Part shown: positions 10,036 to 30,983 of the stretch, piece after piece
Layout: the number at the start of each line of letters is the position of its first letter
Position numbering within the stretch: the first letter of the stretch is position 1
Origin: an uncultured Pseudomonadota bacterium
GTDB lineage: Bacteria > SAR324 > NAC60-12
Direction: 5' to 3'
Length of the DNA: 52,029 nt
Assembly: GCA_913020725.1 (NCBI GenBank)
Contig: CAJWCD010000007.1
Location: 1-52,029, forward strand
Notes under the pieces: model-generated
The model's database searches: none
What the model was told of the DNA's origin: nothing
Seen by the model: the letters and a program-made list of their open reading frames with translations, nothing else
Program-made: the position numbers and the translations under genes

Positions 10036-12231
10036 TTGCAAAGCCCCCAAACCATTCTGGAATCGGTGTTTGGTTATGAGTCGTTTCGTGGTCTCCAGCA
10101 AGAGATCATTGCACACGTCAGCCAAGGCGAGTCCGGATTGATTTTGATGCCCACCGGAAGCGGGAAATCGTTGTGCTACCAGATTCCGGCCATTCTGCGA
10201 GCAGGCGTGGGCGTGGTGGTTTCGCCGTTGATTGCGCTGATGCAAGATCAAGTCAGCGCCTTGCAACAAGCCGGAGTCCAAGCCGCATTTCTCAACTCCA
10301 CGCTCAGTCCGCAGGAAATGGCGGATGTCGAGGGGCAACTGCGAGCAGGGCGATTGGATTTGCTCTATATCGCTCCGGAACGTCTCAAAACCCAGCGGTT
10401 TTGGCAGTTGCTGGGGCAACTCCAGATTGCGCTTTTTGCCATTGATGAAGCCCATTGTGTCTCACAATGGGGCCACGATTTTCGCCCGGATTACCGTCAG
10501 CTTGTCGCCTTGCGAAAACGCTATCCGGGAGTGCCTTGCCTAGCACTCACGGCGACGGCGGATGCTGTCACGCGGGAAGACATTCGGGAGCATTTGCAAC
10601 TGACGGACTCACCCGTATTTGCTTCCGGATTTGACCGCCCGAACATTCAGTATCGAGTCGCACTCAAGCACAGCCCTCGCCCCCAACTCCTGAATTTCAT
10701 CCGCGAAGAACATCCGGAAGATGCTGGAATTGTTTATTGTTTAAGCCGCAAACGGGTGGAAGACACAGCGGCATGGCTGGTCGGCAAAGGCGTTCCCGCG
10801 CTCCCCTACCACGCGGGGCTGGATGCTGCTGTCCGGCGCCAAAACCAAGCACGGTTTGTGCGAGAAGAAGGCATTGTGATTGTCGCCACGGTGGCGTTTG
10901 GAATGGGGATTGACAAACCAAATGTGCGTTTTGTCGCTCACCTTGACCCGCCTAAAAGCATCGAAGCCTACTATCAGGAAACGGGACGCGCCGGGCGTGA
11001 CGGCTTGCCCGCAACGGCGTGGATGATCTACAGCCTTGCCGATGTGGTCAGTTTGCGCAGGCTGCTCAGCCAATCCGAAGCCGATGCAGCGCATAAACGC
11101 TTGGAACAGCAAAAACTGGAAGCCCTGCTCGGTTATTGCGAAAGCGTGAGCTGCCGCCGACAAGTGCTGCTGCGTTATTTTGGCGAATTGCCTGAAGCGC
11201 AGTGCGGCAATTGCGACACCTGCTTGCAGCCCGTCACAAGCTGGGACGGCACGATTGCCGCGCAAAAAGCGCTATCCGTGATTGCTCGCACTGGCGAACG
11301 CTTTGGAGGAGGGCACTTGGTTGATGTGCTGCGGGGCACTCCAACTCCAAAGGTGCAGCAATTTGGCCACGACCGCATCAAAACTTTTGGGGTCGGCGCT
11401 GAGCTTCCGGAAAAGCAGTGGCATTCCGTGTTTCGTCAATTGATGGCTGCGGGGCTTTTTGAGGTTGATCCGGAATACGGCAGTTTCGGTTTGAACACAA
11501 ACAGCTGGGAGGTCATGCGGGGGAAGCGCACGGTCGCACTCCGGCATGATCCGGAACCGCCGCGAAAATCCCGCAAACCCAAACGTCCGGGCGCACCCGT
11601 CGTTTTTGAAGACCCGGCGATGAAAGCGTTGTGGAACGATTTACGGGAACTCCGGATGGCTCTGGCAAAGGAGCAGAATGTTCCGCCTTACGCCATTTTT
11701 CACGACAAAACGCTGGTGGAAATGCTACGGCAACATCCGGGGACTCTGGCGGAATTGGCCCAAATTCCCGGAGTGGGCAAGAACAAACTCGAACGCTATG
11801 GCGAGGGTTTTCTTGAGTTGCTGCGCCCTTTTGTTGGCCGTTCAACGACCCCGGAAATGTCGGGTGCTCCGGAAAAACAGAAACCTCCGGCCCCGCTGGA
11901 ATTTGCGGAGGTTGATGAAATTTCAGAAACGGTGCAACAAACGTTTGATTTGTGTGTGCAAGGGCTGGCTCCGGAACAGATCGCAGAGGAGCGGGGCTTG
12001 CAGGAAACGACGGTTTACAGCCATCTCGCCCAAGCAATTGCTGAAGAGAAGCTCACTCCGGAAGATGTGTTGCCATTGGAAAGCTTTGAATTTGAGCGTA
12101 TCCGGAGAGAGTTCACCACCCTTCCCGAAGAATCGCAAACTGCCCTCAAACCCGTGTTTAAGGCACTGAACGAGCAGTATGCTTACGGCGTGTTGCGTTG
12201 TGTGCGGGCAGGGCTTTGGGGGCTGCCGTGA
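10036..12231 (+). CDS. recQ: ATP-dependent DNA helicase RecQ (helicase, RQC, HRDC and C-terminal HTH)
   Basis: [43 protein letters not shown]...CGNCDTC and HRDC '[12 protein letters not shown]'. Confidence 0.96.
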
Positions 12232-14044
12232 GGGATGAATCGCCCCCGCTTCCGCTTGCAGATTTGCGGGCATAGCCCCTCGGCGTGTAAACCCATCCGG
12301 CCCCGTCGGGCGAGGGCAGGTGCCGCGTCTGGCTGGAGCCGATCAGCACCACGGTGAGCATGTCGATGAGTTCCGGGCGCAGTTCCTCCAGCGAAATGAC
12401 GCGCAGGGTTTCGTCCGGGCGACCAAGGTTGCGGGCCAGCACGACCGGGGTTTCCGGAGGCCGGTGGTGCCGCAGGATGTCCCGTGCCGTCACAAGCAGG
12501 GCCACCCGTTTCCGGGAAACCGGATTGTAGAGCGCAATCACGAAATCGCCCTGCGCGGCGGCATGCAGCCGTTGCTTGATCACCGAGGTCGGAGTCAGCA
12601 AATCCGAGAGCGAAATCGCGCAGAAGTCGTGGCCGAGGGGTGCGCCGATGCGGGCGGCGGCGGCATGCATCGCGGAGATTCCGGGGACCACGGACACCGC
12701 CACCGGCGCCCACTCCGGTTGCGCCTCCCGCTCCAGCAGTTCAAACACCAGCGTCGCCATCGCGTAAATTCCGGGATCGCCGGATGAGATCAGCGCCACG
12801 GTGCGCCCCTCGGCGGCGAGATTCAGGGCGTAGCGCACCCGCTCGGTTTCCTCACCCAAGGCAAAGCGGTGCTGCTTTTGGTCACGCCGCACGTCCGCCG
12901 CCAAGTCGAGATAGAGTCCGTATCCCACCCAGTCGCTGGCGGCTTCCAGCGCCTTTCGTGCTTCCGGAGTGCGCCACTCGGCGGTACCGGGGCCAAGCCC
13001 GACGATGAACAACTGCCCCTGCCCCACGCCAAAGGCTTCGGCCTCAAACGGTTCTGGAGCCACCGCGATGGCACAGGTCGCCCGCGCCGAGCGCACCTTG
13101 GGCACCCACAACATTCCGAGCGGCCCGACCACCGCCAGCGCCGCGCCCTCTGCGACTCCGTGGCAACCCACCTCCCGAAACACCACCTTGGAGGGGGTCA
13201 GCAGCCGCGCTTTTTGCTCATCCAAGGTCGCCGCATCAAAAAACCGCACCGGGCGATTCAATTGCATTCCGAGGGCCAACACCGCTTGCTCGTCGCGCTT
13301 GACCTCCAGCGAAAACACTCCGGCCACGCTCTCTGGCGCAAGGTGGTACCAATGCAGGGTCTCGTCCACCAGCGTCCACAATTCATCAGGATCGCAACCC
13401 CGCTCGCACCCCACCCCAATCGCCAACGTCCGGGGGTGATAGACGAGGTGGCTCGTGCTTCCCGACCAACGCCGCTCGGACACGGAAATGCGCAAGCTCC
13501 CGTGCGGGTGGCGCGGCAATTGGCTCTCCCCGAACCACGAATGCCGCCCCTCCATCGTGAGGGTCGCGCCATTCAGCAGTTCCGCCATGAAAGATTTTGC
13601 GTCTTCCGGATTGGCGAGGGTGAGGCCGTCCGGCGGCTCGTCGAGCGCAATGCCAAAGCGTAAATCACCGGAAGTTGTCACGGCAGCAGAACCGCCCAAT
13701 TCCTGCGTGATTTGCTGTGCCAAGAAATTGGCCCGATGGTGTCCGCCCAACAACGGCACCACGGAACTACCGTCCTCCGCAATGGCCAGCACTGGCGGCT
13801 CGGTGCGTTTGTTCTTGAGTTCCGGGGCCACCGCCCGAATCAAAATGCCCGCTGCACACACTCCGATGATCGGCGTTCCCTCCCGGAAGAGCGCGGCAAG
13901 GTGTGCCATCGTTTCGGTGAAGTGAACCTCAGCTTCGGGCACACGACCGGCCTTGCTGTGCAGGGTGCCGTCCAGCAAGCCCACGATGCGCTGGGCCACA
14001 GGAACTGCTCCGGCGGTGAGGCAGACAACGGCAGGTTTAGACAC
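12158..14044 (-). CDS. cobJ: CbiG-CobJ(CbiH) fusion: cobalt-precorrin-5A hydrolase plus precorrin-3B C17-methyltransferase
   Basis: CbiG motifs ([33 protein letters not shown]) followed by CobJ motifs ([42 protein letters not shown]). Confidence 0.92.
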
Positions 14045-14747
14045 GGCGCACCAAAATCATGGAAAAGTACGGAACGGTCTCCGGATCAACCTCGTCCAAG
14101 GGCAGCACCCGTTGATCCGGACGGGTCGCGTGTTCCACATAACGGGCTTGTTCCGCCAAATCGCAACGGTTCAACAAGTCTCGCAGTTTCGTGAAATGCC
14201 GACCCACTTTCATTAGCACAAACACGCCCGGTGCTTGCAGACGCGACTCCAATTCCGCTTCTGAAAGTGGGCCGGGCAGCACGGTGAGGGGTTCGTTACG
14301 CGCAACCAGAGGCCGCCCAAGCACGGCGGCACAGGCCATCAGCGAAGATACTCCGGGCACCACCTCAATCCGGAAACTTCCGGAGAGCCGTTCGAGCAAA
14401 TACATGAACGAACCGTAAAAAAGCGGGTCGCCCTCGCACAGCACGGCCACTGATTTTCCGGAGGCCAGTCGAGTCGCCAAGCTCTCTGTGGCATCGTCAT
14501 ACGCCTGCTGCGCCGGAAACGGGTCTACCGAAATCGGCAAGCGCAAGGGCAGCACCTCCGGATTGGCGCTCAGGTGCGGCTTGGCGATTTCCCAAGCCAA
14601 GCCAGTGCCTATCTCCGGAGCCGGATATGCCACCACCGCACATTCGTTAAGCAGACGCACCGCCTTGAGGGTGAGCAACTCCGGATCACCCGGTCCCACT
14701 CCGAGGCCGTACAACACTCCTGAAGTTTGATTCACCACAGAGGACAC
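14037..14747 (-). CDS. cobI: Precorrin-2 C20-methyltransferase CobI/CbiL
   Basis: LYGLGVGPGDPELLTLKA, EGDPLFYGSF, VPGVSS, MKVGR, PYFSMIL. Exact start uncertain. Confidence 0.93.
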   Translation of the reverse strand: MSSVVNQTSGVLYGLGVGPGDPELLTLKAVRLLNECAVVAYPAPEIGTGLAWEIAKPHLSANPEVLPLRLPISVDPFPAQQAYDDATESLATRLASGKSVAVLCEGDPLFYGSFMYLLERLSGSFRIEVVPGVSSLMACAAVLGRPLVARNEPLTVLPGPLSEAELESRLQAPGVFVLMKVGRHFTKLRDLLNRCDLAEQARYVEHATRPDQRVLPLDEVDPETVPYFSMILVRRV

Positions 14748-14751
14748 AGAG
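14733..14751. repeat. Half copy of the 9-bp-period REP-like element
   Basis: CACCACAGAGGACACAGAG, closely matching the left arm at 27954. Confidence 0.55.
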
Positions 14752-14772
14752 GTTTAAAGTTTGAGGTGAATC

Positions 14773-15981
14773 TCATCTGACTGCGGCGAGTTGGGTGACG
14801 GGGCGCAGAGGACGCCAGCCCTGAAATGCACCGATGGGTGCTGCATGAGCAATGTCGATCCTAGTCAAAGCACCTCCGTTCGCAGCCTGCCATTTCAGCA
14901 ACACCTGTTCCCCCTCCAAAGTCACTGCGTTTGCCACCATCCGTCCTCCCGGTTGCAATTGCTGCCAACAGGTTTCCAGCAGATTCGGCGTTGTCAGCCC
15001 ACCTCCGAGGAACACAGCATCCGGAGCCTCCAAACCGGAAAGTGACTGCGGTGCTTCTCCTGCGACAATTTGCAACCGGGGCACACCAAGTTGGGTCGCG
15101 TTTTGTTCAATCAGGGCGCTGCGCTCCGGTTTGCGCTCAATGGCAAGGGCGCGACAACGGGAGTCGCTGCGCATCCACTCAATTGCCACAGAGCCGCAGC
15201 CCGCTCCCACATCCCAAAGCAACTGCCCCGGAATTGGCTGCAACCACGCCAGCGTGAGTGCCCGAACCTCGCGCTTGGTGAGTTGGCCGTCGTGGGTGAA
15301 GGCTTCGTCCGGAAGCCCCGGAATGCACGGCAGCACTTGGGCGTTTTCGTTTGCAACACACTCCACGGCAACCACGTTCAGGGCCGCACCTTCCGGATGG
15401 TTCCAGCTTGCAGCGGTTCCTGCAAGTTTCTGCTCGCGTTCGCCACCCATGTTCTCCAGCACGGTGAGGCGGCTGGCCCCAAATCCACGCTGGACAAGTA
15501 ATTCTGCAATCGCCTTGGGACTGCGACCATCCCAACTCAACACCATCAGCTTGGCTCTAGGTTGGATGTGCGGGTGCAACGCCTCCAGCGGTCGCCCATG
15601 AACGGTCAGCGTTTCAACCTCCGGCAACGACCACCCCAATCTCGCGCAGGCCAGCGAGTAGGCGGACGGAGCAGGCAAAAAACGAATTTCCTCACAGCCG
15701 AAGCCTTCCCGCAAGAGCTTTGCGCCAACGCCGTAGCAGAGCGGATCCCCCGTGGCGAGGACCACCGTACCCTCGCCCGCTTCCCGGATTTTTGGGAAAT
15801 CGTCTCCCATGCGCTGCGCCCAAGTTTCGCGCTGGGCGGCAACGGCATCCGGTAGCATTGCCAAGTGGCGCGGTCCTCCGTAAATCGTGCGAGCCTGCTC
15901 CAGACACGAACGCGCCGCTACGCCCAATCCGGGCCAGCCATCCTCGCCGATGCCCACCACCGTCAACCAAGGTGTGTTCAT
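14773..15981 (-). CDS. cobL: Precorrin-6Y C5,15-methyltransferase (decarboxylating), CobL/CbiET
   Basis: VVGIGEDG, LATGDP..YGVG, HDGQLTKREVR, WDVGAGCGS, NAVTLE. Confidence 0.94.
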   Translation of the reverse strand: MNTPWLTVVGIGEDGWPGLGVAARSCLEQARTIYGGPRHLAMLPDAVAAQRETWAQRMGDDFPKIREAGEGTVVLATGDPLCYGVGAKLLREGFGCEEIRFLPAPSAYSLACARLGWSLPEVETLTVHGRPLEALHPHIQPRAKLMVLSWDGRSPKAIAELLVQRGFGASRLTVLENMGGEREQKLAGTAASWNHPEGAALNVVAVECVANENAQVLPCIPGLPDEAFTHDGQLTKREVRALTLAWLQPIPGQLLWDVGAGCGSVAIEWMRSDSRCRALAIERKPERSALIEQNATQLGVPRLQIVAGEAPQSLSGLEAPDAVFLGGGLTTPNLLETCWQQLQPGGRMVANAVTLEGEQVLLKWQAANGGALTRIDIAHAAPIGAFQGWRPLRPVTQLAAVR

Positions 15982-16610
15982 GTTGGCGCTCCCATTATCG
16001 CCAAGGCGTTGACCGCCGCCGCCGCCATTGCGCTACCCCCCCGCCGTCCGTGCAGGGTGATGAACGGAACTCGGGCAAATTCCGCAACCGCAACTTTCGA
16101 TTCTGCCGCCCCGACGAATCCCACTGGAAACGCGAGGATCGCCGCCGGTTCCGGCCAGCCTTCCGCGATGCCTTCAAGCAAATGAAACAACGCCGTGGGT
16201 GCATTGCCGATCACCACCACGGCTCCTGCGAGTTCCGGAAGCCAACGTTCCGTGGCGACCAGCGCCCGTGTGCAATTTCGAGACTTCGCTTCCTCACGCA
16301 CTCCGGGATCGTTAATCCAGCAGTACACCGCATTCTGCGCGGGTAGCCGCTCCCGCATGACACCCTCCACAACCATCCGGACATCGCACAGCACGGGTGC
16401 CCCGCATTGCAGCGCAGCGCGTCCGGATTCCACCACTTGCGGATGCCATGCGAGTTCGTTGAGCAAATCCGTCATCCCGCACGAGTGCATGAGTCGCACG
16501 GCCATCTCCGCCACCCCCTCTGGACAGCTGGAGAAATCAACCTCTTTTCGGATCGTTGCAAAGGATTCACGGTAAATCGCGTCCGGCTCCTTCAGGTACG
16601 CAAAGCTCAA
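15978..16610 (-). CDS. cobH: Precorrin-8X methylmutase CobH/CbiC
   Basis: IYRESFATIR, IGNAPTAL, PVGFVGAAESK, GRRGGSAMAAAAVNAL. Confidence 0.95.
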   Translation of the reverse strand: MSFAYLKEPDAIYRESFATIRKEVDFSSCPEGVAEMAVRLMHSCGMTDLLNELAWHPQVVESGRAALQCGAPVLCDVRMVVEGVMRERLPAQNAVYCWINDPGVREEAKSRNCTRALVATERWLPELAGAVVVIGNAPTALFHLLEGIAEGWPEPAAILAFPVGFVGAAESKVAVAEFARVPFITLHGRRGGSAMAAAAVNALAIMGAPT

Positions 16611-17611
16611 ATCTGCCCTTCGAGTTTCTTGAGCGTCACGGGACCCAGCGGATGATCCGCGTGGGGGTACGGATGATGACCGTGCTCGTGCGAGTGATTG
16701 TGACCGTGGTCGTGCGAATGCTGATGCCCGGAATCTTCTGATCCGATTCCTTCGACATGGTGATGATGGCTTTCTTGCGGCAAACCGACCTCGGCTTCAA
16801 AGCCCAGCACCTGTTCGCGGTATTTGCACATCTGGCAGTTCATCAGGTTCTGTCCCTCCAGAATTTCCTGCACGCGATCCCGAAACGCATCCAACACCAG
16901 CGGATGGTCATTGAGGTAAGGAGCTTTGACGAACTCGATCTCCGGATGTCGTGCCGCCACCAAATCGGTGTGGTCGTAGATGCGCTGCACAAGAATTCCA
17001 GTGAAGAGGAAATACGGAAAAACGATAATCCGCTTGAATCCCAGCCGCACCGCCCGCTCCAGAGCGGGTTCCACCAGCGGAAAGGTGACGCCGGAATACG
17101 CGGTTTCGCCCCAGCCAAAGCCGAGACCCTCCCAGAGCAAGCGCATCACTTTGGCGACATTCGAGTTTGCGTCCGGGTCGGAGGCACCTCGTCCCACCAC
17201 AACCAGCAACGTCTCGTGCCGGGAAACGTGGTCTCCGGCTTCAGTAACCGCAGCCTTCACCCGCTCTCCGGCGGCGCGGATCAATTTAAGGTCAATCCCC
17301 AATTCACGCCCGTAGCGGATGTCCATGTCCGGATGTTGGGCTTGGTAGGTGTTGAGCACGGAAGGGATGTCGTTTTTCGCATGTCCTGCCGCGAACAGCA
17401 TTCCCGGCACCGCCAACACTTTACGGAAACCCTTGGTCCGCAAGGCGTCCAGCCCATCGCGAATGATCGGCGTGGCGAACTCCAGAAAACCCCACTCCGT
17501 CTCGTGTTCGGGCATGCGCTCGCGCAGTCCCTGTGCCACCGCCTGAAATTCCTCCACCGCTTGTCCGTCACGACTTCCGTGACCACAGACCATGATTCCC
17601 CATTCGTTCAT
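16607..17611 (-). CDS. cbiX: Sirohydrochlorin cobaltochelatase, long form with Fe-S motif and His-rich tail
   Basis: CGHGSRD, AAGHAKNDIP, VGRGASD, PYFLFTG, MNCQMC and a His-rich C-terminus. ATG at 17611 follows GGAGA. Confidence 0.92.
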   Translation of the reverse strand: MNEWGIMVCGHGSRDGQAVEEFQAVAQGLRERMPEHETEWGFLEFATPIIRDGLDALRTKGFRKVLAVPGMLFAAGHAKNDIPSVLNTYQAQHPDMDIRYGRELGIDLKLIRAAGERVKAAVTEAGDHVSRHETLLVVVGRGASDPDANSNVAKVMRLLWEGLGFGWGETAYSGVTFPLVEPALERAVRLGFKRIIVFPYFLFTGILVQRIYDHTDLVAARHPEIEFVKAPYLNDHPLVLDAFRDRVQEILEGQNLMNCQMCKYREQVLGFEAEVGLPQESHHHHVEGIGSEDSGHQHSHDHGHNHSHEHGHHPYPHADHPLGPVTLKKLEGQI

Positions 17612-17626
17612 TGCTTCTCCTTTCAA

Positions 17627-18166
17627 TTATTTGATTCGGACCGGCTGTCCGGCCACACACCACCAGACCTCGTCGCAAGTCTCACCGAGTTGCTGCCCGG
17701 CTCGTCCGGAGAGATCGGCAAAGCGACGGGCCAACTGATTCTCCGGAAGGATGCCCTGCCCCACCTCGTTCAGCACCAGCACCATGTCATTGGGCATGGC
17801 CAGTATGCGCTCGATTTCGGAGAAGGCTGCGGCTTCCGGAAGCTGATGATGCAGCCAGTTGTTGAGCCACATCGTCAGGCATTCGACAAGTACCGGAGAA
17901 TGCGATTCCCGAAGGTCTCCCCCCTTTGGCAAAGGGGGGATGGGGGAGATTTTCAGGGCATTGGTCAAGTGCAGCGGCTCCTCGATAGTCCGGAATTGTT
18001 CACCTCGTCTTTGACGATGGACGGCAATGCGTTCACGCATTCCATTGTCCAGAAGCTCGGTTGTCGCCAGATAAATCGGTGTTTCACCACCTGCGAGTTC
18101 TAGGGTACGTTGCTCGGCGAAACTCGACTTGCCGCTTTTGACGCCCCCTGTGATCAACACCTTCAC
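17627..18166 (-). CDS. cobU: Bifunctional adenosylcobinamide kinase / phosphate guanylyltransferase CobU(CobP)
   Basis: ITGGVKSGKSSFAE, YLAT, RIAVH, TIEEP, VECLTMWLNN, NEVGQG, VAGQP. GTG at 18166 overlaps the cbiB stop. Confidence 0.92.
   Translation of the reverse strand: MKVLITGGVKSGKSSFAEQRTLELAGGETPIYLATTELLDNGMRERIAVHRQRRGEQFRTIEEPLHLTNALKISPIPPLPKGGDLRESHSPVLVECLTMWLNNWLHHQLPEAAAFSEIERILAMPNDMVLVLNEVGQGILPENQLARRFADLSGRAGQQLGETCDEVWWCVAGQPVRIK
17914..17953. repeat. GC-rich palindromic element inside cobU
   Basis: TCCCCCCTTT-GGC-AAAGGGGGGA (17918-17940), a perfect 10-bp stem with 3-nt loop, followed by TGGGGGAGATTT. Confidence 0.8.
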
Positions 18167-19152
18167 GACGGCCACCCCACGGGAACCCAGCCCAGCGAAA
18201 ACACGATCACCAAACCTCCGGAAAACAGCCACGTTGCCATGCGCGCCAAGCGGTTCATACGTTGGAGGTCGGCATTTGTCACCTCAGCCCGTGCATCCGG
18301 ATCACCGAGCCAAAAGTCACTCGCCAGTTTTCCTTTGCGCCAGATTGGCCCACAGAGCCGGAGGCCCAATGCTCCCGCCGCTGTGGCTTCAGCCCAACCG
18401 GCATTCGGACTGGGGAGTTTGTGGCAATCCCGCAAACCCACGCGCCACGCCGCCCTTCCGGAGCCTCCCGACATTACTGCTGAAGCGACAATCAGCAAAA
18501 ACGACAGCCGTGCCGGAATCCAGCAGAGCCAATCATCCAAGCGGGCACTGGCCCAACCGAAGTGGCGGTAGCGTTCATTGCGGTAGCCCACCATCGAATC
18601 CAGCGTACTTACTGCCTTGAAGGCTACCATGCCCGGAATTCCGGCGACTGCAAACCAGAACAACGGCGCGATCACACCATCATTGAGATTCTCGCTCACG
18701 CTCTCCACGGCAGCGCGTCCGCAGGCGTGGAGATTCATGCGTTCCGTATCGCGGCTGACCAACCGACTCACCTGCCGCTTGGCTTCCGGAAGATCGGCTT
18801 GCTCCAGCGCAGTTCCCACGCGCTTGGCGTGGACCAGCAAATCCTTCAGCGCCAGCAAACTCCAGCCGAGCAAGAGCAGCACCGCCAGTTCTAGCAATTC
18901 ACCTACAAGTGATCCCAGTGCCAGCAGCAGCGTTGATGTCCCCACGGTCACGCCGATTATCACGGTCAACAAGAGAATACCACCACCTTGCCCATTCCAG
19001 CCAAAATTCCGGAGCAACGCTTCCGTTTTCGCTATAAAATTTCCGAGTACCCGCACTGGATGCCAGCGGTACTCCGGATCCCCAAAAACTTCGTCCAGTG
19101 CCAGCATCAACACCAACACCCATTCCGGACGTAGCCACTCACTGCTTTCCAT
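18163..19152 (-). CDS. cbiB: Adenosylcobinamide-phosphate synthase CbiB/CobD
   Basis: GDP..RWHPV, LVSRDT, AAVESVSENLNDGVIAPLF, TLDSMVGY, SPNAGW. Confidence 0.94.
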   Translation of the reverse strand: MESSEWLRPEWVLVLMLALDEVFGDPEYRWHPVRVLGNFIAKTEALLRNFGWNGQGGGILLLTVIIGVTVGTSTLLLALGSLVGELLELAVLLLLGWSLLALKDLLVHAKRVGTALEQADLPEAKRQVSRLVSRDTERMNLHACGRAAVESVSENLNDGVIAPLFWFAVAGIPGMVAFKAVSTLDSMVGYRNERYRHFGWASARLDDWLCWIPARLSFLLIVASAVMSGGSGRAAWRVGLRDCHKLPSPNAGWAEATAAGALGLRLCGPIWRKGKLASDFWLGDPDARAEVTNADLQRMNRLARMATWLFSGGLVIVFSLGWVPVGWPS

Positions 19153-19179: not shown

Positions 19180-19710
19180 TCACAAAGCGCTGGCTTCGGA
19201 ATCTTTGTCTGGGGCAGATGTTGAGGGTGCTTGCTCGCTGGGGGATTTGGAAACGGCTGCGGTGGGTTCGGCAGGTACGTTCTTTTCCTCTTTGGTTTTC
19301 CCGGCAATGTACTCCTGATGCTGATCCCAAACCTTCTGGAGCACACGATTCACCAAACCGTGCGAGTCGTCATCTACGAGATCCTTGCACAACTCAACAG
19401 ACTCGTTAATGACAATCCGGTGCGAGATTTCAGGACCAAAGCACATCTCATACACACCAAGGCGCAGGATATTGCGGATGACCACGGAAAGCCGATTAAG
19501 CCGCCAGTTGTCGAGGCTGCGGCGGATGCGACGGTCAATGTACTTGCGGTTATGCAATGTGCCCACTGCCAACTCGCGGGTGAAATCCCGCATCTTTTCA
19601 GGAAGCTCGGAGTGTTCTAGGAAGCGCTCCACCGGACCTGAAGCCTTCGACTCAATCAGTTCCGATTGGTAGAGCGCTTGGATGGCGTGAACGCGGGCTT
19701 GATGGCGCAT
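19180..19710 (-). CDS. nusB: Transcription antitermination factor NusB
   Basis: RHQARVHAIQALYQ, NWRLNRL, ILRLGVYE, VINESVEL, VNRVL. Confidence 0.88.
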   Translation of the reverse strand: MRHQARVHAIQALYQSELIESKASGPVERFLEHSELPEKMRDFTRELAVGTLHNRKYIDRRIRRSLDNWRLNRLSVVIRNILRLGVYEMCFGPEISHRIVINESVELCKDLVDDDSHGLVNRVLQKVWDQHQEYIAGKTKEEKNVPAEPTAAVSKSPSEQAPSTSAPDKDSEASAL

Positions 19711-19716
19711 GGGAAT

Positions 19717-21042
19717 TCAGGATTGTGTGCTGGCAAGTGATTGATGCAGCTTTTGCACCAGTGCCTGATTATAGCCGTGGGAGGTCATGTTGGCAACAAC
19801 ACGGCCCCGCACGGAGTGTCCGATGAGGAAGAGGTCGCCCAACAAGTCGAGGATTTTGTGGCGCACAAATTCATCTGGAAACCGCAATTCTGTGTTGATC
19901 ACCTTGTTGTCGTGCAGAATGATGTGCGAGTTGAGGTAGCCACTGCCCACCGTTCCTTGCTTCTGGGCCATGTCGATGTTTTCGAAGGTGTTGAACGACC
20001 GCGCCGGGGCGATGTCTTTGTAGAACGAGTCACGCTCCGGGTTGAAGGTCAGCACCTGTTCGTGGATGGGAGCGGGGTAGTCCACGCGCATCTGAATTTC
20101 AAAGCCCTCCGCAGGTTCCGCGTAAAGGTGTTTTTCCTGCGAAGATTCAATACCCACCAGAATTTTCTCGTGAATGACAAGGGTGCGGGCTTTGGCATCC
20201 TGCTCCACGGTTCCGGCTTCAGCAATCACCTTGGCAAAGTCGAGGGCGGAGCCGTCGATGTTGGGGATTTCCTCATCCGCCTTGACGAGCACGTTGTCGA
20301 GTCCAGCCATGAAGAGCGCAGCCATCAGGTGTTCGACCGTCCGGACCTTGCGGTTTTGCTGGGCAAGGACGGTGGAATTAGCGGTGAAGGTGTGCGTCGC
20401 GACTGATTGTGAAAAATTTTCCAGCGCGGTGATGTGTCCGGGAATGGTGGTGCCATCCAGTGTTTGAAACTGGATTCCGGAATCTGGCTCGGCTGGGCTG
20501 AGGATGATGCCGGTGTTGCGCCCCGTGAGCAGACCCTTGCCGTTGAGAACCACATTGTCAGCAACGGTGCGCTGGTTCCGCCCTGCGGCTTCCAGTGAAA
20601 CCGCTCCGGACTGCACATCGTCCTGATACGAAGCTGCTTCTAAGAGCGTGTCCGAGGCCAGTTCCTTGTGATTTCCGGAGGGTTTGGTCAACAATTGCGA
20701 AACCCGGTTCAGCACCACCTCCAGTTGCAGGGGTTTCTCCAAAAAATCTACGGCCCCCAACTTGATCGCGTTGACGGCGGCTTCGATGCCGGCATGTCCG
20801 CTCATCATCACCACTGGGACCTGCGAATGTGATTCACGCAGTTGGCTGAGGATGGCCATGCCGTCCATGCCCGGCAGCCAAATGTCGAGAAAGATGAGCG
20901 CAGGGGTTTGCCGTTCCAGTTCCTGAAAGAGCGAGGTTGCGTTGGCACAGGTGATCACCGGGTAACCTTCATCCATGAGGATGTCCCCCAAGGTTTCCCG
21001 GATTGTGGGTTCATCGTCAACGATGCAAATGGCGGCGGTCAT
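19717..21042 (-). CDS. lpxC: Response-regulator receiver domain fused to UDP-3-O-acyl-N-acetylglucosamine deacetylase (REC-LpxC)
   Basis: About aa 1-120 is a receiver (VDDE, LDIWLPGMDG, MMSGH, FLEKP). From about aa 157 it is LpxC (QRT...G.GL..G, TVEHLMAAL, EIP.IDGSA, IAPARSF, LRFPDEFVRHKILDLLGDL, TSHGYN). One uninterrupted ORF. Confidence 0.92.
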   Translation of the reverse strand: MTAAICIVDDEPTIRETLGDILMDEGYPVITCANATSLFQELERQTPALIFLDIWLPGMDGMAILSQLRESHSQVPVVMMSGHAGIEAAVNAIKLGAVDFLEKPLQLEVVLNRVSQLLTKPSGNHKELASDTLLEAASYQDDVQSGAVSLEAAGRNQRTVADNVVLNGKGLLTGRNTGIILSPAEPDSGIQFQTLDGTTIPGHITALENFSQSVATHTFTANSTVLAQQNRKVRTVEHLMAALFMAGLDNVLVKADEEIPNIDGSALDFAKVIAEAGTVEQDAKARTLVIHEKILVGIESSQEKHLYAEPAEGFEIQMRVDYPAPIHEQVLTFNPERDSFYKDIAPARSFNTFENIDMAQKQGTVGSGYLNSHIILHDNKVINTELRFPDEFVRHKILDLLGDLFLIGHSVRGRVVANMTSHGYNQALVQKLHQSLASTQS

Positions 21043-21061: not shown

Positions 21062-21553
21062 TTAGGCGATCACGCGGGCGCGGCCATTTTTGGGGGTGTC
21101 CTGTGGTGGCTCTACCTTGAGGATTTCGATCTTGAAGATCAAATTGGCACTCGGAGGAATATCCATTTGTGGCACCCCTTGCGGGCCGTAGGCGAGTTTG
21201 GCAGGAATCCGGATTTGGAGCTTAGTGCCCTGCCGGACTCCAGCAAGGGCCTCCTCCCAACCTGCGATCACCTTGCCCGCACCCTGTTCAAGGGTGTAGG
21301 GTTTGCGCTTGGCGCGGCTGCTGTCAAACGGTGCAAACGAATCGGCGAGCCAACCTTCGTAATGGACGGTGACTTTGCTGCCCTTTTCGATCTTGCGGCC
21401 ATCCCCGGGACGTTCCACATAGATTTCCAGTCCGGAGCGTTGCTTCTTGAACGCCGCATCAAGGGCGAGCTTGGGGCGTGGATGCTGCTCTTCCTCTTTG
21501 CCCCCCTTGGCTCCAACAGCAGCTTTGGCAGCAGGATTGATCTTCATCGGCAC
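21062..21553 (-). CDS. FKBP-type peptidyl-prolyl cis-trans isomerase
   Basis: VTVHYEG, FDSS, VIAGWEEAL, IPAKLAYG, IPPSANLIFKIE. Confidence 0.92.
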   Translation of the reverse strand: MPMKINPAAKAAVGAKGGKEEEQHPRPKLALDAAFKKQRSGLEIYVERPGDGRKIEKGSKVTVHYEGWLADSFAPFDSSRAKRKPYTLEQGAGKVIAGWEEALAGVRQGTKLQIRIPAKLAYGPQGVPQMDIPPSANLIFKIEILKVEPPQDTPKNGRARVIA

Positions 21554-22761
21554 GAAAAAGAAGTGGGTGCGTCACTCTCGTTCATCAGGATGGTGACTTC
21601 GATGGGAGCGGTTTCATCTCCCTGCGCAAACCCCCGGTTGACATCCAGAAAGAGGTTGATGAGGTTTCCCCGGAGATAGTACTGTCCGGAAAGCACCTCT
21701 GCGTCGCCTTCCAGCACAATCATTTTCGTCAGTTCGTCAAAGCTCGCCCGTTTGGCACGAGCCACACGTCCGGGTTGCTGAAGGCAGACGTCCTGCTCGG
21801 CGCGAGCGAGCTGGAGCCGCTGCGCCTTGTCCGCATGCAAAGAAATACGCTCCGCCCGCACAAACATTTCCTCCGGAGTGCGCTCCATTTCAACCTGCCC
21901 CTCGAAAACGGCCTCACCCTTGTCCGCGTCCAGCACGGCCCGGTAGGCTTGCACGATGATTCGTTGGGCGTTGGGGTCTCCCGCCAGCCGCAACTCGGCG
22001 GCTTCATCGGCCTCCGGCAGGGCGACCAAGTCCAGATTTGCCTCAACCCGGAACCGTCCCTCTGGAGTGGGCAAGCCCTCAAGTTCAGTGCGGTGATGCA
22101 AAAAATCGGCAAAAAACTTGTGGGTCCGCAGCGAACCTTGCGGAACTGTCACCCGCACATTGCCCTCCAACTGAAGGGTCTGCTCATTCAGGAATTCTGA
22201 ATCACGCCGTTTGCCCTGCCAACCGCGCTCAAAGACCATGTAGTCGGCATTCAACTCGCGGTTCCACTGCCGGAACCAAACGACGCCTTCTCCCGTCAAC
22301 CGTTCTCTCAGTGGTTCCTGCTGACGATTGATCCGCAGTTTGAGCGTGGTGAACTCCAGATTTTCTCGTGCAACCCACCCGTGCACGTTGCCCCGGAACA
22401 TCGCCTCTCCCGCATTGAGATCGCTGCTGAACTCATCGGCCTCGATGCGCAGTCGCTCGGTTCCGGCGTAGTGCAAGATCAGTTCTGTTTCATCAGGATT
22501 TTGTGCTGCGGTGGACAACGCCCCCAACGCCGCGACAAAGGCATTTTTTGCGAGGAACCTCCGGTCTTTCAGAGTCCCCAATGCTGACAGCAAGGACTCG
22601 GGGAAGCCTTCGCGTCGCAAATTCTGGAGGGTACTTGTCGTGATTTGAAACGACTCGACCGCGAGTCCGGTACGCTTCTGCGCCAGCACTTCCGGAGCGG
22701 CGACTGCTACGAATGTGACCAGCACGAACAAAGCAAACAGCGACCTATGGAACTCAGGCAT
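21544..22761 (-). CDS. Exported LptA/OstA-like beta-jellyroll protein with N-terminal extension
   Basis: Signal-peptide-like N-terminus. Repeated OstA-type strands (IEAD...[30 protein letters not shown]...LRGNLI). Lies between pyrG and lpxC. Confidence 0.65.
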
Positions 22762-24436
22762 GTGCGGTTTTCAGTGTCTCAGTGGAGGAAAGCTGCCCCT
22801 GACGACTGGCGCGATGCTTGTGCGCCGCAGCGATGAACGCCGCAAACAGCGGGTGCGGCTTGAGCGGTTTCGACTGAAGTTCCGGATGATACTGACAGCC
22901 AATGAACCACGGATGCTCCGGAAGTTCAATGGTCTCGACGAGATCACGCTCCGGGTTCCTTCCGGAGAAGACGAGTCCGGCTTTTTCGAGCTTGGGGACA
23001 AACTCGTTCATGACCTCGTAGCGATGCCGATGCCGCTCAGAAATGCGGGTGGTTTTGTAAATGCGGGCGATCTTGGAGCGCACGACAAGCTCAGCCTTGT
23101 ACGCCCCCAACCGCATCGTGCCTCCGGTTTCCTGTTTGCCCCGCTGTTCGGGCATCAGATCAATGACGTTCTGCGCGTGGTTCGGTCGGAATTCCCCGGA
23201 GGAGGCTTCCTTGAGTCCGGCGACGTTGCGGGCAAACTCGACAATCGCCATTTGCATTCCGAGGCAAATGCCAAAGAACGGAATGCTTTGCACACGAACA
23301 AACTCGATGGCGGCCACCTTGCCTTCGGTGCCGCGTTCTCCAAATCCGTGAGCGACAAGAACGCCATCCATCGCCTGCAACCGTTTCGCAACGTCCCCCG
23401 ACTCCAATTCCTCGGAGTCAATGTAGTGCAGGTTGACGCGCAACTGATTGGCAATGCCGCCGTGGACCAGTGCTTCGTTGAGACTTTCGTAGGAATCGCG
23501 CTGGTTGACGTATTTTCCGACAAAGGCGATGTCCACCTCCCCCTGTGGATTGTGGTAGCTCTCCACCAAATCCACCCACGGTTGCAGCTTGGGCTGGCGG
23601 GTCCACATGTGTAGGTACTCGACGAGCCGGTCGTCCAACCCCTGCCGCTGGAACATCAGTGGGGCTTCGTAAACCAAGGGGACGTCCAAGCCGTCAAACA
23701 CCGCATTGACTTCAACATTCGTGAACAGTGAGATTTTCTGGCGCAACTTGTCAGGAAGTGGCTCGGAGGTGCGGCAGATGAGGATTTCGGGCTGAATGCC
23801 GATTTCCCGGAGCTTGCCCACGCTGTGCTGCGTCGGCTTCGTCTTCATCTCGGTGGTCTTGATGATGAGCGTGAGATGGACGAAGAGCGCGTGTTCACGC
23901 CCATGTTCCAGTCGGAATTGCCGGATTGCCTCCAAGAACGGGAGTGATTCGATGTCTCCCACGGTGCCGCCGATTTCGACGATGCAAACATCCGCATCAT
24001 CCGCCGCTGCTTTGATGGTGGACTTGATCTCGTCAATGACGTGCGGAACCACCTGCACTGTCTCCCCAAGGTAGGCTCCCGCCCGCTCCTTGCGCAAGAT
24101 GGAATCGTAGATTTGTCCAGTCGTGCAGTTGTGCTTGCGGGTCAGCGTCGCGTTGGTGTAGCGCTCGTAGTGCCCAAGGTCGAGGTCGGTTTCGGCGCCG
24201 TCATTAGTGACAAACACCTCTCCGTGCTGGAAGGGGTTCATCGTGCCTGCATCCAAGTTGATATACGGGTCGAGCTTCATGAGGCTCACGTGTAATCCAC
24301 GGGCTTCCAGCAAGGCTCCGACAGATGCCGCCGCAATGCCCTTGCCTAAGCCGGAGACCACGCCTCCTGTGATGAAAACGTACTTCGTCTGCATTCGTTT
24401 TTTTGTCGTTTGATGCTTAGTGGCTGGAGACGTCAT
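22754..24436 (-). CDS. pyrG: CTP synthase
   Basis: [55 protein letters not shown]. Start at 24436 or 24394. Confidence 0.97.
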
Positions 24437-24453
24437 GCCTCGTGGTCGGCTTG

Positions 24454-25077
24454 TCAAGCAGTCGCAGGTGACGGGGGAGCTTGGAGTGGTGTTGCTTTGC
24501 GGACATCCATGCGGCGGAGGACTTCGTCGGTCACCTGCTCCACCAGAGCAATTTTTCGGATTTCCTCATCTTTCGCCAAAGCCTCCAGCGCGACTTCCTT
24601 AGATTTGGCAAGGACCGTGCGGCGATCCCAAAACGCAAACCCAATGGCCGCGACCATGATCACCGTGAAAATCCCCGTGATGATCTGCAAGAACTGCATC
24701 AGTTCCGAAAAGCGCGTGTTCATTGAATTTTGCCTCTGCTCAAAGCGCGTGTTCATTGAGTTTTGCATCTGCTCAAAGCGCGTGTTGAAGTCCTCACGCT
24801 GTTCGGCAAAACGCTTGTCCACCTGCTCAAAGCGCGTGTTGAAGTCCTCGCGCTGTTCGGCAAAACGCTTGTCCACCTGCTCAAAGCGTTGAGCTGTGGA
24901 TTCCATGAACATCTGGAGCGTGGTCTCGATGCGCACCATATGCTTTCCCACTTGGTCAAAACGCCGATCGATCCGCTCCCGATCCTCTTGTGTGAACCCC
25001 ACTTGCTGCGCTTGAGCCAGCGAAACCCACAACACGCCCAGCCCCACCACCAAGGCTCCGATTCTTGGAAATCTCAT
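24454..25077 (-). CDS. Membrane-anchored coiled-coil protein with internal tandem repeats
   Basis: Signal peptide (…SLAQAQQ), [18 protein letters not shown] repeats, a TM segment followed by WDRR. AAGGAG RBS upstream. Confidence 0.75.
24709..24888. repeat. Intragenic tandem repeats with 54-bp and 33-bp periods
   Basis: CTGCTCAAAGCG recurs at 24736, 24769, 24823 and 24877, giving two near-identical 54-nt units and two 33-nt units. Confidence 0.9.
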
Positions 25078-25247: not shown

Positions 25248-27482
25248 TCAGGAAACGGGCAGTTCCAGCGTGAAACAGGCGCCGCCGGACTCAAGGTTTT
25301 GGAAGCGCACGAAGCCGTTGTGGTCGGCAAGGGTCTGGTGGAGGATCGTGAGGCCAAGTCCGGTGCCGTCGTCCTTGGTGGTCGCATACGGCTCAAAAAG
25401 TCGGTCGGCGATTTCGGGTTCAATCCCGGTGCCGTTGTCTTCCACTTCCACCCGGACAATCCGCAGTTCGGGATCGAGGCGGGTGGTGAGGGCAATCACG
25501 CCCTGTTTGAAGATGCGGGAAAGGCGGCCCTTGTTTTCGATGGCGTCAATGGCGTTGTCAATGAGATTGATGAAAACACGCCGTATCTGCTCGCGGTCGA
25601 GGGGTAACGAGGGCAAGTCCGGAGCCAAGTGGGTGTCCAGTCGAATGCGGGCGGGAAGATTGCCGTCGTAAAGCTGGACTGCTTCAAGGATGATGCTGTT
25701 GAGGTCGTTCGCCTGTGGATTCGACTCCGGAATCTTGGCGAAGTTGGAGAACTCGCTAACCATCTGCTTGAGTTGCTGCACCTCTTGGATGATGGTCCGC
25801 GTTGCCTGCTCCAGCGTGGTGTCATTCTCGATAAGCCCGGAGTATTTGCGGCGGATGCGCTCGGCTGAGAGTTGGATGGGGGTGAGGGGGTTCTTGACCT
25901 CGTGAGCAATGCGTCGTGCCACCTCCCGCCACGCCTGCGCCCGTTGTAAGCGTTGCATCTCCGTGATGTTGTGGTACACCGAGACCATGCCTACCGGCTT
26001 CCCTTCGCGATTCTCCAAGGCAAACAAGCCGGACGAAACATGAACGGGGGCACCCTGCTTGGACACCGTGAGGTTGCGCATCACGGACTTCCCCGGATTC
26101 GCCTGTAGGGATTGGAACATCTCCTCAAATCCCGCCAGTGATTCCCGTTCCAGCACCTCCCCAAAGTGCTTGCCCTGAAAGGCAGCAGTCTTGAGTTGCA
26201 GGATTTGCTTGGCAGTGCGGTTGATGCCCTCGATGCGTCCGTCCATGTCTAGGGACACGACGCCGGTGCTGATGTTCTCCAGCACAAGGTCCACAAACCG
26301 TGTGTGTTCTTCCAGTACCCGATTGCTCTCCTGGAGATGCTCGGTCGTGCGGATCAACCCTTGGCGGTACTCCAGTAAATCTCGGCTCATCGCGTTGAAG
26401 GAGTTGACCAGCAGTGCAAAATCGCGGTCCAATGGTTCCTCCAGTGTGACTTGGTAGCCAACTTCCCCCTCTGACACTCGTTGGGTGGCAACGGCAAGCT
26501 GCTCAATGGGTTCCACAAAACCGCGGGCGAGGTAGAATGCAAGCCAGATGGAGACGAAGAGGATAAAGAAGGTCATCAGCAGGAAGACGACGATGTAGTA
26601 GCGCCGGATCAAGTCCTGCGACTCCACAAAAACCTGAGTGCTGAGCACCTGTTTCTCAAGGGCGTTGACCGCATGGGTCAGTGACCGTGGGGTGGGGCGG
26701 AAGATTTCCACAAACGTCGCCTGCCCGCCAAGTTCTGTCCTCCGGAAATGCCGATAGAGCATCCGCCCGCCGCGCTCTTCGACGATCCACGTCACGTCTT
26801 GCTCCTGCACCTGCGGCCACTCGGTTTCCGCAAGCGGGGTCCAGAGTTCCTGAGCCAGTGGAGTGTGGAGTCGCTGGGACAGCACTTTGTGCTCGGAGGA
26901 ATAAACCACGATGCCAGCACCCAACTCCGGACTTGGGGGGAAGGAAAACTCCGAACTCGAGGGACTTTGCCACTCTTGCAGTCGTCCCGCGAACGCCGCT
27001 CCTTGCAACTCCATCGAGTGTTTGAGGTCGAGGTGGAAGGTCTCTACCACGCGCTGGGCGTTCTGCACAACGGTTTCATGCTGGCCTTCCAGCCACGATT
27101 CGAGGGTGCGGGCGATGAAGGTACTGGCGAAGAGATGGAAACCCATCGCCGGGAGCGAGAGGATCACGAAGGCGGTGATGAGCTTGGTCTTGAGGCGGAC
27201 GCCAATGGTGCGGTGCCGATGTTCGTAAGCAAGCTTGAGAAGGTTGCGGGCGATCAGGTAGAAGACGATGGCGATGAGGACGATGTTGACGTTGATCGCC
27301 ACAAAAAGTATCAATCTCGACTCACTCGTGCCCGTGTCCGGGATGCCCTGCTGGATGCTGAAGCCAATGAGGAAGAGAAGCAACGCAAGCAGGCTGGCGA
27401 TCGCTAGAAAGCGGTTGCGAATCCGGGGATCGGCGGAGAGGAGACTGCGGAAGTGCTGGAGTTTAAGTAAGCGAAGGCGCAT
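25248..27482 (-). CDS. ntrY: NtrY-like membrane sensor histidine kinase (TM, HAMP, PAS, HisKA, HATPase)
   Basis: G.RLKTKL after N-terminal TMs; HAMP (PIEQL..AT.RV.EG, FNAM); PAS; AWREVARRIAHEVKNPLTPIQLSAER; NLIDNA, EDNGTG, FEPY.TTK, GTGLGL. Confidence 0.88.
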   Translation of the reverse strand: MRLRLLKLQHFRSLLSADPRIRNRFLAIASLLALLLFLIGFSIQQGIPDTGTSESRLILFVAINVNIVLIAIVFYLIARNLLKLAYEHRHRTIGVRLKTKLITAFVILSLPAMGFHLFASTFIARTLESWLEGQHETVVQNAQRVVETFHLDLKHSMELQGAAFAGRLQEWQSPSSSEFSFPPSPELGAGIVVYSSEHKVLSQRLHTPLAQELWTPLAETEWPQVQEQDVTWIVEERGGRMLYRHFRRTELGGQATFVEIFRPTPRSLTHAVNALEKQVLSTQVFVESQDLIRRYYIVVFLLMTFFILFVSIWLAFYLARGFVEPIEQLAVATQRVSEGEVGYQVTLEEPLDRDFALLVNSFNAMSRDLLEYRQGLIRTTEHLQESNRVLEEHTRFVDLVLENISTGVVSLDMDGRIEGINRTAKQILQLKTAAFQGKHFGEVLERESLAGFEEMFQSLQANPGKSVMRNLTVSKQGAPVHVSSGLFALENREGKPVGMVSVYHNITEMQRLQRAQAWREVARRIAHEVKNPLTPIQLSAERIRRKYSGLIENDTTLEQATRTIIQEVQQLKQMVSEFSNFAKIPESNPQANDLNSIILEAVQLYDGNLPARIRLDTHLAPDLPSLPLDREQIRRVFINLIDNAIDAIENKGRLSRIFKQGVIALTTRLDPELRIVRVEVEDNGTGIEPEIADRLFEPYATTKDDGTGLGLTILHQTLADHNGFVRFQNLESGGACFTLELPVS

Positions 27483-28898: not shown

Positions 28899-30330
28899 CG
28901 AGGCGTTCCCGCAGCAGTTGATTGATCAACTGGGGGTTGCCCTGTCCTTTGGTCTGTTTCATCATTTGTCCCACAAAAAATCCGAGCACCTTGGTTTTTC
29001 CAGCACGGTATTGCTCCACCTGTTCCGGATTCGCCGCGATGAGTTCAGTGGCGAGCCGACCGAGTTTGTCGGTGTCCGAAACCTGTTTCAGCCCCTTTTC
29101 CTCCACAATCTGAGCCGGAGCCTTTCCGGAATTGCGCATTTCCTCAAAAACGGACTTGGCAATTTTGCTGCTGATCTCGCCCTTGCGGAGCAGTTCCGTG
29201 AGTTCCGCAAGCTGGGCGGGGGCGATTCCACTGTCCCGGAGGCCACAGCCGCTCTCGTTCATCACGCGGGTGAGGTCGCCCATGATCCAGTTGCAGGCGA
29301 GCTTGGGGTCTGCACCTTCCGCCAGCGTTTCCTCGAAAAACTCGGCGGTTTCGCGGCTGGCGATCAGCACTCCGGCATCGTAAGAACTCAGCCCATGCTC
29401 CTGCTGGTAGCGTTCCTGTTTCGCGTCCGGAAGTTCCGGAAGGGCGTTTTGGATTTCCTCCACCCGTGTTTCTGAAAGCTGGACCAGCGGCAGATCGGGA
29501 TCGGGAAAGTAGCGGTATTCCCCGGCTTCCTCTTTCGTGCGCATGGTGAAGGTGACGCGCCGCTCGGAATCCCAGAGCCGCGTTTCCTGCACTAGTTTCC
29601 GCCCATCCAACAATTCCTCTTGGTGTCGGTCAATCTCATAGGCGACCGCCTGCTGGATGAAACGGAAGGAGTTAAGATTCTTGACCTCGGCCCGGACTCC
29701 AAGCTGTTTCTGCCCCTTGGGACGCACCGAAACATTGGCGTCACAGCGCAGTTGGCCTTTTTCCATGTCACCTTCGGAAACACCGAGGTACGTCACCAGC
29801 GAATGGAGTTTCTCCATATATGTCTTGGCCTCTTCCGGAGTGCGCAAGTCTGGTTCGCTGACGATCTCCAGCAGGGGAGTCCCGGCGCGGTTGAAGTCCA
29901 CAAAGCTCGACTCTCCGGCGGATTCATGCACGAGCTTTCCGGCGTCTTCCTCGATGTGGATGCGCGTGATGCCGATGCGTTTGGCTCCGGATTTGGTGTC
30001 GATCATCACCCAGCCGCGTTCGCAGATCGGGCGGTCGTACTGCGAAATCTGATACGCCTTGGGCAGGTCCGGATAGAAGTAGTTCTTGCGGGCGAACTGA
30101 GAGTCGAGCCGGATTTCGCAATGGGTCGCCAGTCCTAGCTGCACGGCGAACTCCTGCACCTGCTCGTTGAGAACGGGCAAGGCACCCGGCAGGCCGAGAC
30201 AGACTGGGCAAGTGTGTTCGTTGGGGTCCGCTCCAAAGCTGGTGGGGCAGTTGCAGAACAGCTTGGATTTCGTTGCCATTTGCGCGTGTATCTCCAATCC
30301 AATAACAGCTTCAAACTCCATCTTGCTCAA
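28891..30330 (-). CDS. gatB: Asp-tRNA(Asn)/Glu-tRNA(Gln) amidotransferase subunit B
   Basis: IGLEIH, RKNYFYPDLPK, EEDAGK, RCDANVS, YRYFPDPDL, GFFVGQMMK. Confidence 0.97.
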   Translation of the reverse strand: MSKMEFEAVIGLEIHAQMATKSKLFCNCPTSFGADPNEHTCPVCLGLPGALPVLNEQVQEFAVQLGLATHCEIRLDSQFARKNYFYPDLPKAYQISQYDRPICERGWVMIDTKSGAKRIGITRIHIEEDAGKLVHESAGESSFVDFNRAGTPLLEIVSEPDLRTPEEAKTYMEKLHSLVTYLGVSEGDMEKGQLRCDANVSVRPKGQKQLGVRAEVKNLNSFRFIQQAVAYEIDRHQEELLDGRKLVQETRLWDSERRVTFTMRTKEEAGEYRYFPDPDLPLVQLSETRVEEIQNALPELPDAKQERYQQEHGLSSYDAGVLIASRETAEFFEETLAEGADPKLACNWIMGDLTRVMNESGCGLRDSGIAPAQLAELTELLRKGEISSKIAKSVFEEMRNSGKAPAQIVEEKGLKQVSDTDKLGRLATELIAANPEQVEQYRAGKTKVLGFFVGQMMKQTKGQGNPQLINQLLRERLDA

Positions 30331-30983
30331 TCCTTCAGTGAGGCCATGCGTGTTTCCAAATCCAGCAGCCGCTGCTTGAGGTCGTCCACCTCACTCTGTT
30401 CGGGAGGGGGATTGGGGATTGGGGGCGGGGCGGGGTGGGTTCCAAACCCGTCCGTACTAGGCGTGGGTGGTTCGCTGCTTGAAGGCTGAGTTTCTGGTTC
30501 CTCACCCCTCGTTGAATCGGGAGGGGGGGCGAATCCAGGAGGTCTGAACTGACGGAGGTGATCCGTGAAGTTCGTCAGGGGGTTTGTGAAGGGCAAGGCT
30601 CCAGATTGCCCCAACCATGCTTGCGGCGTTGTGAACTGCGTCATATGCCGCCGCATGAGGTCACGGGTTTCCAAGTAGGAGTCCAGCACTTTTGGCAGAA
30701 ATTCGGTGAGAAAATCTCCGATCAACCCGTCTTGGTTACGAATGAGCTGGTGCAGGAAGTCCGCAGAAAACAGATAGGAATTTTGTTCCAAGACCACCTG
30801 CGCTAGCACAGCTGGAGTGATGTCCTCCCGCGTTTTCGAGTCGATCACCTGCACCTCGCGGCCCTGCTTGATCAACTCCACCAACTCGTCTAGCGTGAGG
30901 TGCTTGCTGCGCGTGACGTCATAGAGTCGGCGATTGGGGTATTTGCGGATGACGACCGTGCCTTCCGGCGCGTGACGCTTCAT
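30327..30983 (-). CDS. PhaR-like PHA/PHB accumulation regulator (N-terminal DNA-binding domain)
   Basis: IRKYPNRRLYD..S...TLDE, VIDSKT.EDIT..VL.Q, then a Pro-rich linker and C-terminal coil. ATG at 30983. Confidence 0.8.
   Translation of the reverse strand: MKRHAPEGTVVIRKYPNRRLYDVTRSKHLTLDELVELIKQGREVQVIDSKTREDITPAVLAQVVLEQNSYLFSADFLHQLIRNQDGLIGDFLTEFLPKVLDSYLETRDLMRRHMTQFTTPQAWLGQSGALPFTNPLTNFTDHLRQFRPPGFAPPPDSTRGEEPETQPSSSEPPTPSTDGFGTHPAPPPIPNPPPEQSEVDDLKQRLLDLETRMASLKD

Follow-up and report, generated by a model that had tools for sequence, protein, structure and literature searches.

LpxC, the committing enzyme of lipid A synthesis, sets lipid A flux and is an antibiotic target. In the 52,029-nucleotide stretch of a SAR324 contig analyzed here (CAJWCD010000007.1 of assembly GCA_913020725.1; hereafter the window), this enzyme is encoded as one protein with the receiver domain of a response regulator. 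The locus raises the question of whether LpxC can be controlled by phosphorylation of the enzyme itself, as the first-pass annotation of the DNA had proposed.

Receiver and LpxC domains in a single conserved protein

The gene (P0001) occupies 19717-21042 on the minus strand and encodes 441 residues. Pfam recognized two domains only, Response_reg at residues 5-114 (20701-21030; E 7e-30) and LpxC (PF03331) at residues 157-433 (19744-20574; E 9e-72, covering profile positions 1-267 of 268), and neither an AAA+ nor an HTH domain. The protein scored 242 bits against PF03331 (cut-off 27) and 202 bits against the lpxC family TIGR00325 (cut-off 187), whereas its receiver reached 115 bits against the 600-bit cut-off of the NtrX family NF051870. 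By these family tests the protein is an LpxC and not an NtrX. Like LpxC-FabZ (NF009667), it is an LpxC within a two-domain protein, but there the partner is a C-terminal metabolic enzyme; the match to NF009667 scored 192 bits against 465 and covered the LpxC part only.

The first-pass annotation had described the same arrangement, a single 441-residue frame combining a receiver with LpxC, and its motifs were recovered in both halves: D9-D10-E11, D53 in LDIWLPG, S81 in MMSGH and K103 in EKP in the receiver, and E237-H238, H395-K396-x-x-D399 and H422 in the enzyme. The linker, which it had put at about 35 residues, spans about 38 (residues 119-156; 20575-20688). It was also right that the receiver is of NtrX type, but it was silent on the minus strand, on an origin from a whole NtrX-LpxC fusion and on the spread of the fusion over several phyla.

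To assess conservation, we compared 82 fusions of the window's subclade with 16 stand-alone LpxC controls. The receiver residues D9, D53, S81 and K103 were invariant in 82/82, including the predicted phospho-acceptor Asp53 (codon 20884-20886). In the enzyme, H395, K396, D399, D403 and H422 were invariant as well, and E237 and H238 were kept in 81/82, the remaining sequence having a gap. The zinc ligands of LpxC are H79, H238 and D242 in E. coli numbering, according to the accessible text of a review (PMC13333357); the matching residues H238, H395 and D399 were present in 81-82 of the 82 fusions, and the catalytic residues E78 and H265 were retained as E237 (81/82) and H422 (82/82). An AlphaFold2 model (pLDDT 88.5, pTM 0.72) contained both the receiver and the LpxC fold. 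Its LpxC domain aligned to 7cid with a TM-score of 0.88 by target length and an rmsd of 1.8 Å, and every Foldseek match among those listed was LpxC. The domain is predicted to be a UDP-3-O-acyl-GlcNAc deacetylase, sharing its fold, zinc ligands, catalytic Glu and His and UDP-site Lys with the stand-alone LpxC (PF03331, TIGR00325) of P. aeruginosa, E. coli and A. aeolicus, to which the fusion adds an N-terminal receiver and a linker.

A frame of this kind could also arise if two genes were joined by an assembly error or read through by chance. Parts of the region occur in 20 RNA runs; four of these gave short contigs with patchy gene cover, and among the pieces listed none bridged the whole linker. 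One related Nitrospirota locus is split, with a receiver of 166 residues and an LpxC of 296 residues in overlapping separate frames (L063:5561-6891), either by sequencing error or as a real split. Against this, receiver and LpxC were complete and in a single frame at 76 of the 80 loci in the genome_contigs set. The four exceptions are two loci cut off by the end of their contig, the split locus, and L095, where similarity stops after residue 318. Carriers belong to SAR324, Nitrospirota, Desulfobulbales, Oligoflexia and Leptospirales and include a cultured organism, Desulfofustis glycolicus DSM 9705 (Desulfobulbales), so that the taxonomic spread on which the first-pass annotation had left a question extends over several phyla. 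A chimeric join is ruled out by these independent genomes, and we assign artifact or read-through a negligible probability. The receiver-LpxC fusion is a real, conserved gene architecture.

The architecture is apparently undescribed. We found no description of it in the literature covered, mostly open-access main text, and a census table of response regulators could list it. The accessible text of two reviews (PMC12444477, PMC13333357) had no match for 'fusion' or 'fused' or for LpxC phosphorylation, and the parts of PMC11877204, PMC6776010 and bioRxiv 2021.11.05.467447 that were available contained nothing on a receiver-LpxC fusion.

Whether the source genome has another lpxC had been raised with the initial proposal. 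In a profile search of this genome (93.3% complete) the fusion was the single PF03331 match, and lpxA, lpxD, lpxB, lpxK and waaA were also present, all above cut-off. The relatives, whose lack of the fusion would have weakened the proposal, carry it throughout: it was the single match in 25/25 genomes of the window's family, f1 (the source genome included; one copy is cut at a contig end). By contrast, in the sister family, f2, a stand-alone lpxC was found in 16/16 genomes and the fusion in 0/16. Among 40 carriers from the 80-locus set, 23 had the fusion only and 17 a canonical lpxC too, a second copy that the first-pass annotation had missed. In genomes of the broader clade the fusion was the only lpxC match in 30/33, with one canonical second copy and two fragments in the others; all these genome counts lack independence, since the assemblies are incomplete and related to one another. 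In Hydrogenedentota, two lpxC-like genes of 450 and 303 residues stand side by side (L189:6992-9413).

Probable origin of the receiver from NtrX

The best NCBIfam match of the receiver was NtrX (NF051870, E 3e-33), and its best matches among solved structures were also NtrX (PDB 4d6x and 5m7n, which we take to be the Brucella protein). In a receiver tree, fusion receivers intermixed with those of ntrY-linked NtrX, with modest support (0.84, falling to 0.60 when three long branches are included). Family match, tree and structures all agree with the earlier description of the receiver as NtrX-like.

We searched 50% cluster representatives for related architectures. Of 150 hits, 50 were domain-scanned and comprised 22 REC-LpxC, 15 REC-AAA-LpxC, 2 REC-HTH-LpxC, 5 AAA+-LpxC fragments, 5 LpxC only and 1 receiver only. 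NtrX was the best family match of all three long-form fusions tested. Of 19 long forms, none kept G[AS]FTGA or LDE (Walker B), compared to 8/10 free NtrX; by these motifs, the AAA+ domain of the long NtrX-LpxC fusions is decayed. Three arrangements thus occur among relatives of the window protein: lpxC, ntrY and ntrX as separate genes; a whole NtrX joined to LpxC, its AAA+ domain decayed; and a short protein of receiver and LpxC. With a long-form alignment query, which favors loci holding both receiver and LpxC parts, we recovered 80 loci with 33 fusions. In 12 of the 33, ntrY lay directly upstream, the fusion taking the place of ntrX behind ntrY, and 8 of the other 47 loci had separate neighboring lpxC-ntrY-ntrX genes. 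An NtrX-only query found the lpxC-ntrY-ntrX cluster in 5/80 loci, one of them a repeat.

In an IQ-TREE analysis of LpxC domains, 48 fused domains formed one clade against 25 stand-alone domains (support 100/99), in a set of 73 rows hand-chosen from 159 and with a bootstrap that had not fully settled. A few 'solo' rows that fell inside the fused clade in the first FastTree, mostly fragments, were left out of this set. On this tree the fused LpxC clade has a single origin. A single clade of long forms was rejected (p-AU 7e-76) and eight state changes were needed, which fits repeated AAA+ loss. Short forms branch off first within the fused clade, so a long-form ancestor is a proposal, which we favor as the simpler reading. 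An lpxC-ntrY-ntrX cluster would then have given rise to an NtrX-LpxC fusion, whose AAA+ and DNA-binding parts may have decayed and then been lost several times.

A receiver with such a history might be a leftover of the fusion event, with no regulatory role and of structural or solubility value only. The AAA+ and HTH parts did decay, and one stand-alone LpxC (P0164, 283 residues, no receiver) nests inside the fused clade beside P0124, perhaps by receiver loss or a truncated gene call. Yet the phospho-site has been spared, its residues being invariant in 82/82 fusions even where overall identity falls to about 53%, and NtrY has persisted, its active site intact, where no NtrX was found (see below). 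We consider a role-less receiver highly improbable.

An NtrY kinase without NtrX

A 744-residue NtrY-type membrane histidine kinase (HAMP, PAS, HisKA and HATPase domains; H527 box intact) is encoded at 25248-27482 on the minus strand, 4.2 kb and four genes upstream of the fusion, and no response regulator lies directly downstream of it. The kinase is the orthologue of the NtrY that adjoins NtrX in f2. NtrY was present in 25/25 f1 genomes, whereas an NtrX orthologue was found in 0/25 compared to 15/16 in f2; two paralogues at 43-44% turned up in large genomes. None of the 20 f1 ntrY loci fetched had a same-strand regulator behind ntrY. In f1 NtrY the H-box and ATP-binding boxes are preserved, and kinases linked to NtrX have near-identical ones.

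Among 32 carriers outside SAR324, an NtrX orthologue (49% identity or more) was found in 16/17 genomes with two lpxC genes and in 5/15 with the fusion only, and in fusion-only Oligoflexia ntrY is orphaned. No NtrY match was found in 5/32 of these carriers, whose genome completeness is uncertain. In 0/80 subclade loci was ntrY within 8 kb of the fusion, so the linkage seen in the window is not general. In an Oligoflexus genome with the fusion as its only lpxC (G056), ntrY is immediately followed by what is left of ntrX, a 112-residue AAA-HTH remnant (L236:6664-7002) and a possible snapshot of ntrX loss. The window NtrY is likely to be the cognate kinase of the fusion receiver, a pairing suggested by ancestry and co-retention. 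An NtrX-type receiver, a conserved fusion, a sole lpxC and an NtrY without NtrX together make the pattern expected of direct phospho-control.

Between kinase and fusion, the minus strand encodes pyrG (CTP synthase by Pfam; 22754-24457), a 405-residue LPS transport protein of the LptA/LptD_N family (21544-22761) and, directly upstream of the fusion, an FKBP-type peptidyl-prolyl isomerase (21062-21553), both by Pfam/NCBIfam. The LptA/LptD_N protein matches Pfam over two stretches, resembles LptC weakly and is far longer than a typical LptA. Directly downstream of the fusion is nusB (19180-19710, minus strand, Pfam), which follows the fusion in 26/80 related loci. Conserved neighbors in the 80 loci were nusB and genus-level blocks only, and no common partner gene was found outside SAR324. 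Behind ntrY in other f1 genera (L208-L211) come a short gene and then pyrG-lptA-FKBP; at some other loci pyrG-lptA-FKBP precede the fusion. These split contexts suggest that the unbroken run of genes between gatB and nusB in the window may be the older arrangement.

Several further features of the region were noted. The interval 24454-25077, between ntrY and pyrG, encodes a 207-residue protein that begins with a signal or membrane segment, contains tandem repeats and ends in a membrane helix; 54 nt within the repeats (24796-24851) are missing from one RNA contig, suggesting copy-number variation. A sigma-70-like site (11 of 12 positions; 19796-19768, minus strand) at the end of lpxC, upstream of nusB, was rejected as a coding by-product because it overlaps the conserved VANMTSHGYN codons and matches the pattern in only 4/20 relatives. 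The DUF4390 profile (PF14334) had no match in the source genome, and the controls were equally blank. Downstream of nusB, 12158-19152 holds a cobalamin biosynthesis cluster in which cobD/cbiB was confirmed by Pfam; its other genes were named by eye. Also by eye, we take 30327-32815 to be a PhaR-like regulator with a Rieske ring-hydroxylating dioxygenase pair.

Active-site changes and proposed control of the enzyme

The enzyme domain departs from stand-alone LpxC at several positions. The His equivalent to H19, which the first-pass annotation had reported as replaced, is Leu172 by alignment to P. aeruginosa LpxC; Leu stands there in 80/82 subclade fusions and His in 0/82, compared to His in 16/16 stand-alone controls and in 16/19 long forms, the other three having Gln. 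Other changes had gone unnoticed. The T191 position is Ser349 (Ser in 78/82 fusions, Thr in 4/82; Thr in 16/16 controls), ARTFGF of the controls reads ARSFNT in the subclade, with G192-F193 changed, and a 7-residue insertion precedes the M62 region. Tyr369 and His373 stand at P. aeruginosa S210 and A214, positions that we assume line the acyl tunnel. The E. coli envA1 allele is, we presume, a change at H19. As far as the available text of PMC13333357 goes, envA1 compromises LpxC activity; this source and the accessible part of PMC11877204 describe His19 as hydrogen-bonding inhibitors and do not count it among the zinc ligands.

These differences raise the possibility that the LpxC domain of the subclade has shifted in role, having become an enzyme of low activity or altered substrate, or else a sensor that reports a metabolite to NtrY via the receiver. 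The changes at H19, T191, G192-F193 and the tunnel region are fixed, in the LpxC tree a long stem leads to short terminal branches in the subclade, and the canonical lpxC that coexists in 17/40 carriers is often accompanied by intact ntrY-ntrX. However, the fusion is the sole lpxC of the source genome, where the other pathway genes are present, and it is the single match in 25/25 f1 genomes; all zinc ligands and both catalytic residues are retained; and loss of H19, to Gln, occurs also in 3/19 long forms. We find a shift in role improbable.

The effect of phosphorylation on the enzyme is a separate matter. NtrY might act on the receiver with LpxC stability or localization as the outcome, through membrane or protease recruitment, and not catalysis. 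This would fit all the genomic evidence equally well, and E. coli controls its LpxC by proteolysis and Neisseria by recruiting it to the membrane through Ght, as reported in the accessible text of PMC12444477. Moreover, linker residues 120-126 are predicted to be disordered, and the model (pTM 0.72) is compatible with domains in contact or apart. The later linker, by contrast, is conserved, including a motif at residues 128-135 that is conserved in part, and is predicted to be ordered against the enzyme domain; the available parts of two reviews also provide precedent for allosteric control of LpxC by LapB and MurA (PMC13333357, PMC12444477). An effect through stability or localization is, in our assessment, unlikely.

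The best explanation, and one that we consider probable, is that NtrY phosphorylates Asp53 and that the receiver in turn changes LpxC activity; ancestry and joint retention point to the pairing of kinase and receiver. NtrY would sense an envelope-related signal and set the phosphorylation state of Asp53, and the receiver with its ordered linker would alter the catalytic output of LpxC, tuning lipid A synthesis on the enzyme itself. Kinase control would then likely act on the LpxC enzyme directly instead of via gene expression. The catalytic effect is itself a guess; as to its direction we guess, with barely a lean to one side, that phosphorylation activates LpxC, by analogy with a sigma-54 activator of lpxC.

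Response regulators with enzymatic output include CheB, PleD and RpfG, in which, as in the fusion, the receiver is N-terminal to the enzyme domain. With its intact receiver joined to an enzyme, the fusion appears to fit this class, but the enzymes of CheB, PleD and RpfG act in signaling, whereas that of the fusion is the committed step of an envelope biosynthesis pathway. Similarly, NtrX has a transcriptional output, whereas the output of the fusion, which lacks AAA+ and HTH domains, would be its enzyme. The known controls of stand-alone LpxC are proteolysis, binding of LapB or MurA, and transcription. NtrY/NtrX is itself tied to the envelope and to lpxC levels: in R. sphaeroides, loss of NtrYX raised the lpxC transcript 8.8-fold and LPS about twofold, indirectly, according to the portion of the report available (PMC7240162). 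The accessible text of PMC3333781 gives lpxC as the single mapped target of D. vulgaris DVU2934 and places lpxC of S. fumaroxidans directly upstream of an operon orthologous to DVU2931/DVU2934. This two-component system acts on the lpxC promoter from a separate gene.

Over several phyla, the history that we propose is a circuit short-cut, in which NtrX joined the product of its neighbor and repeatedly shed its transcription parts, so that NtrY would switch LpxC by Asp phosphorylation; we hold this to be somewhat better founded than its alternatives taken together. In the available text of a 2026 review, allosteric control of LpxC activity is an open question (PMC13333357). The receiver-LpxC fusion would be a new mode of such control and could point to an allosteric surface. 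If the proposal is true, control of an LpxC by phosphorylation would here be seen for the first time, and the NtrY signal would gain a single-enzyme read-out, testable with one enzyme assay; a cultured carrier is available in D. glycolicus DSM 9705. The long, medium and short forms would then trace the passage of control from transcription to the post-translational level.
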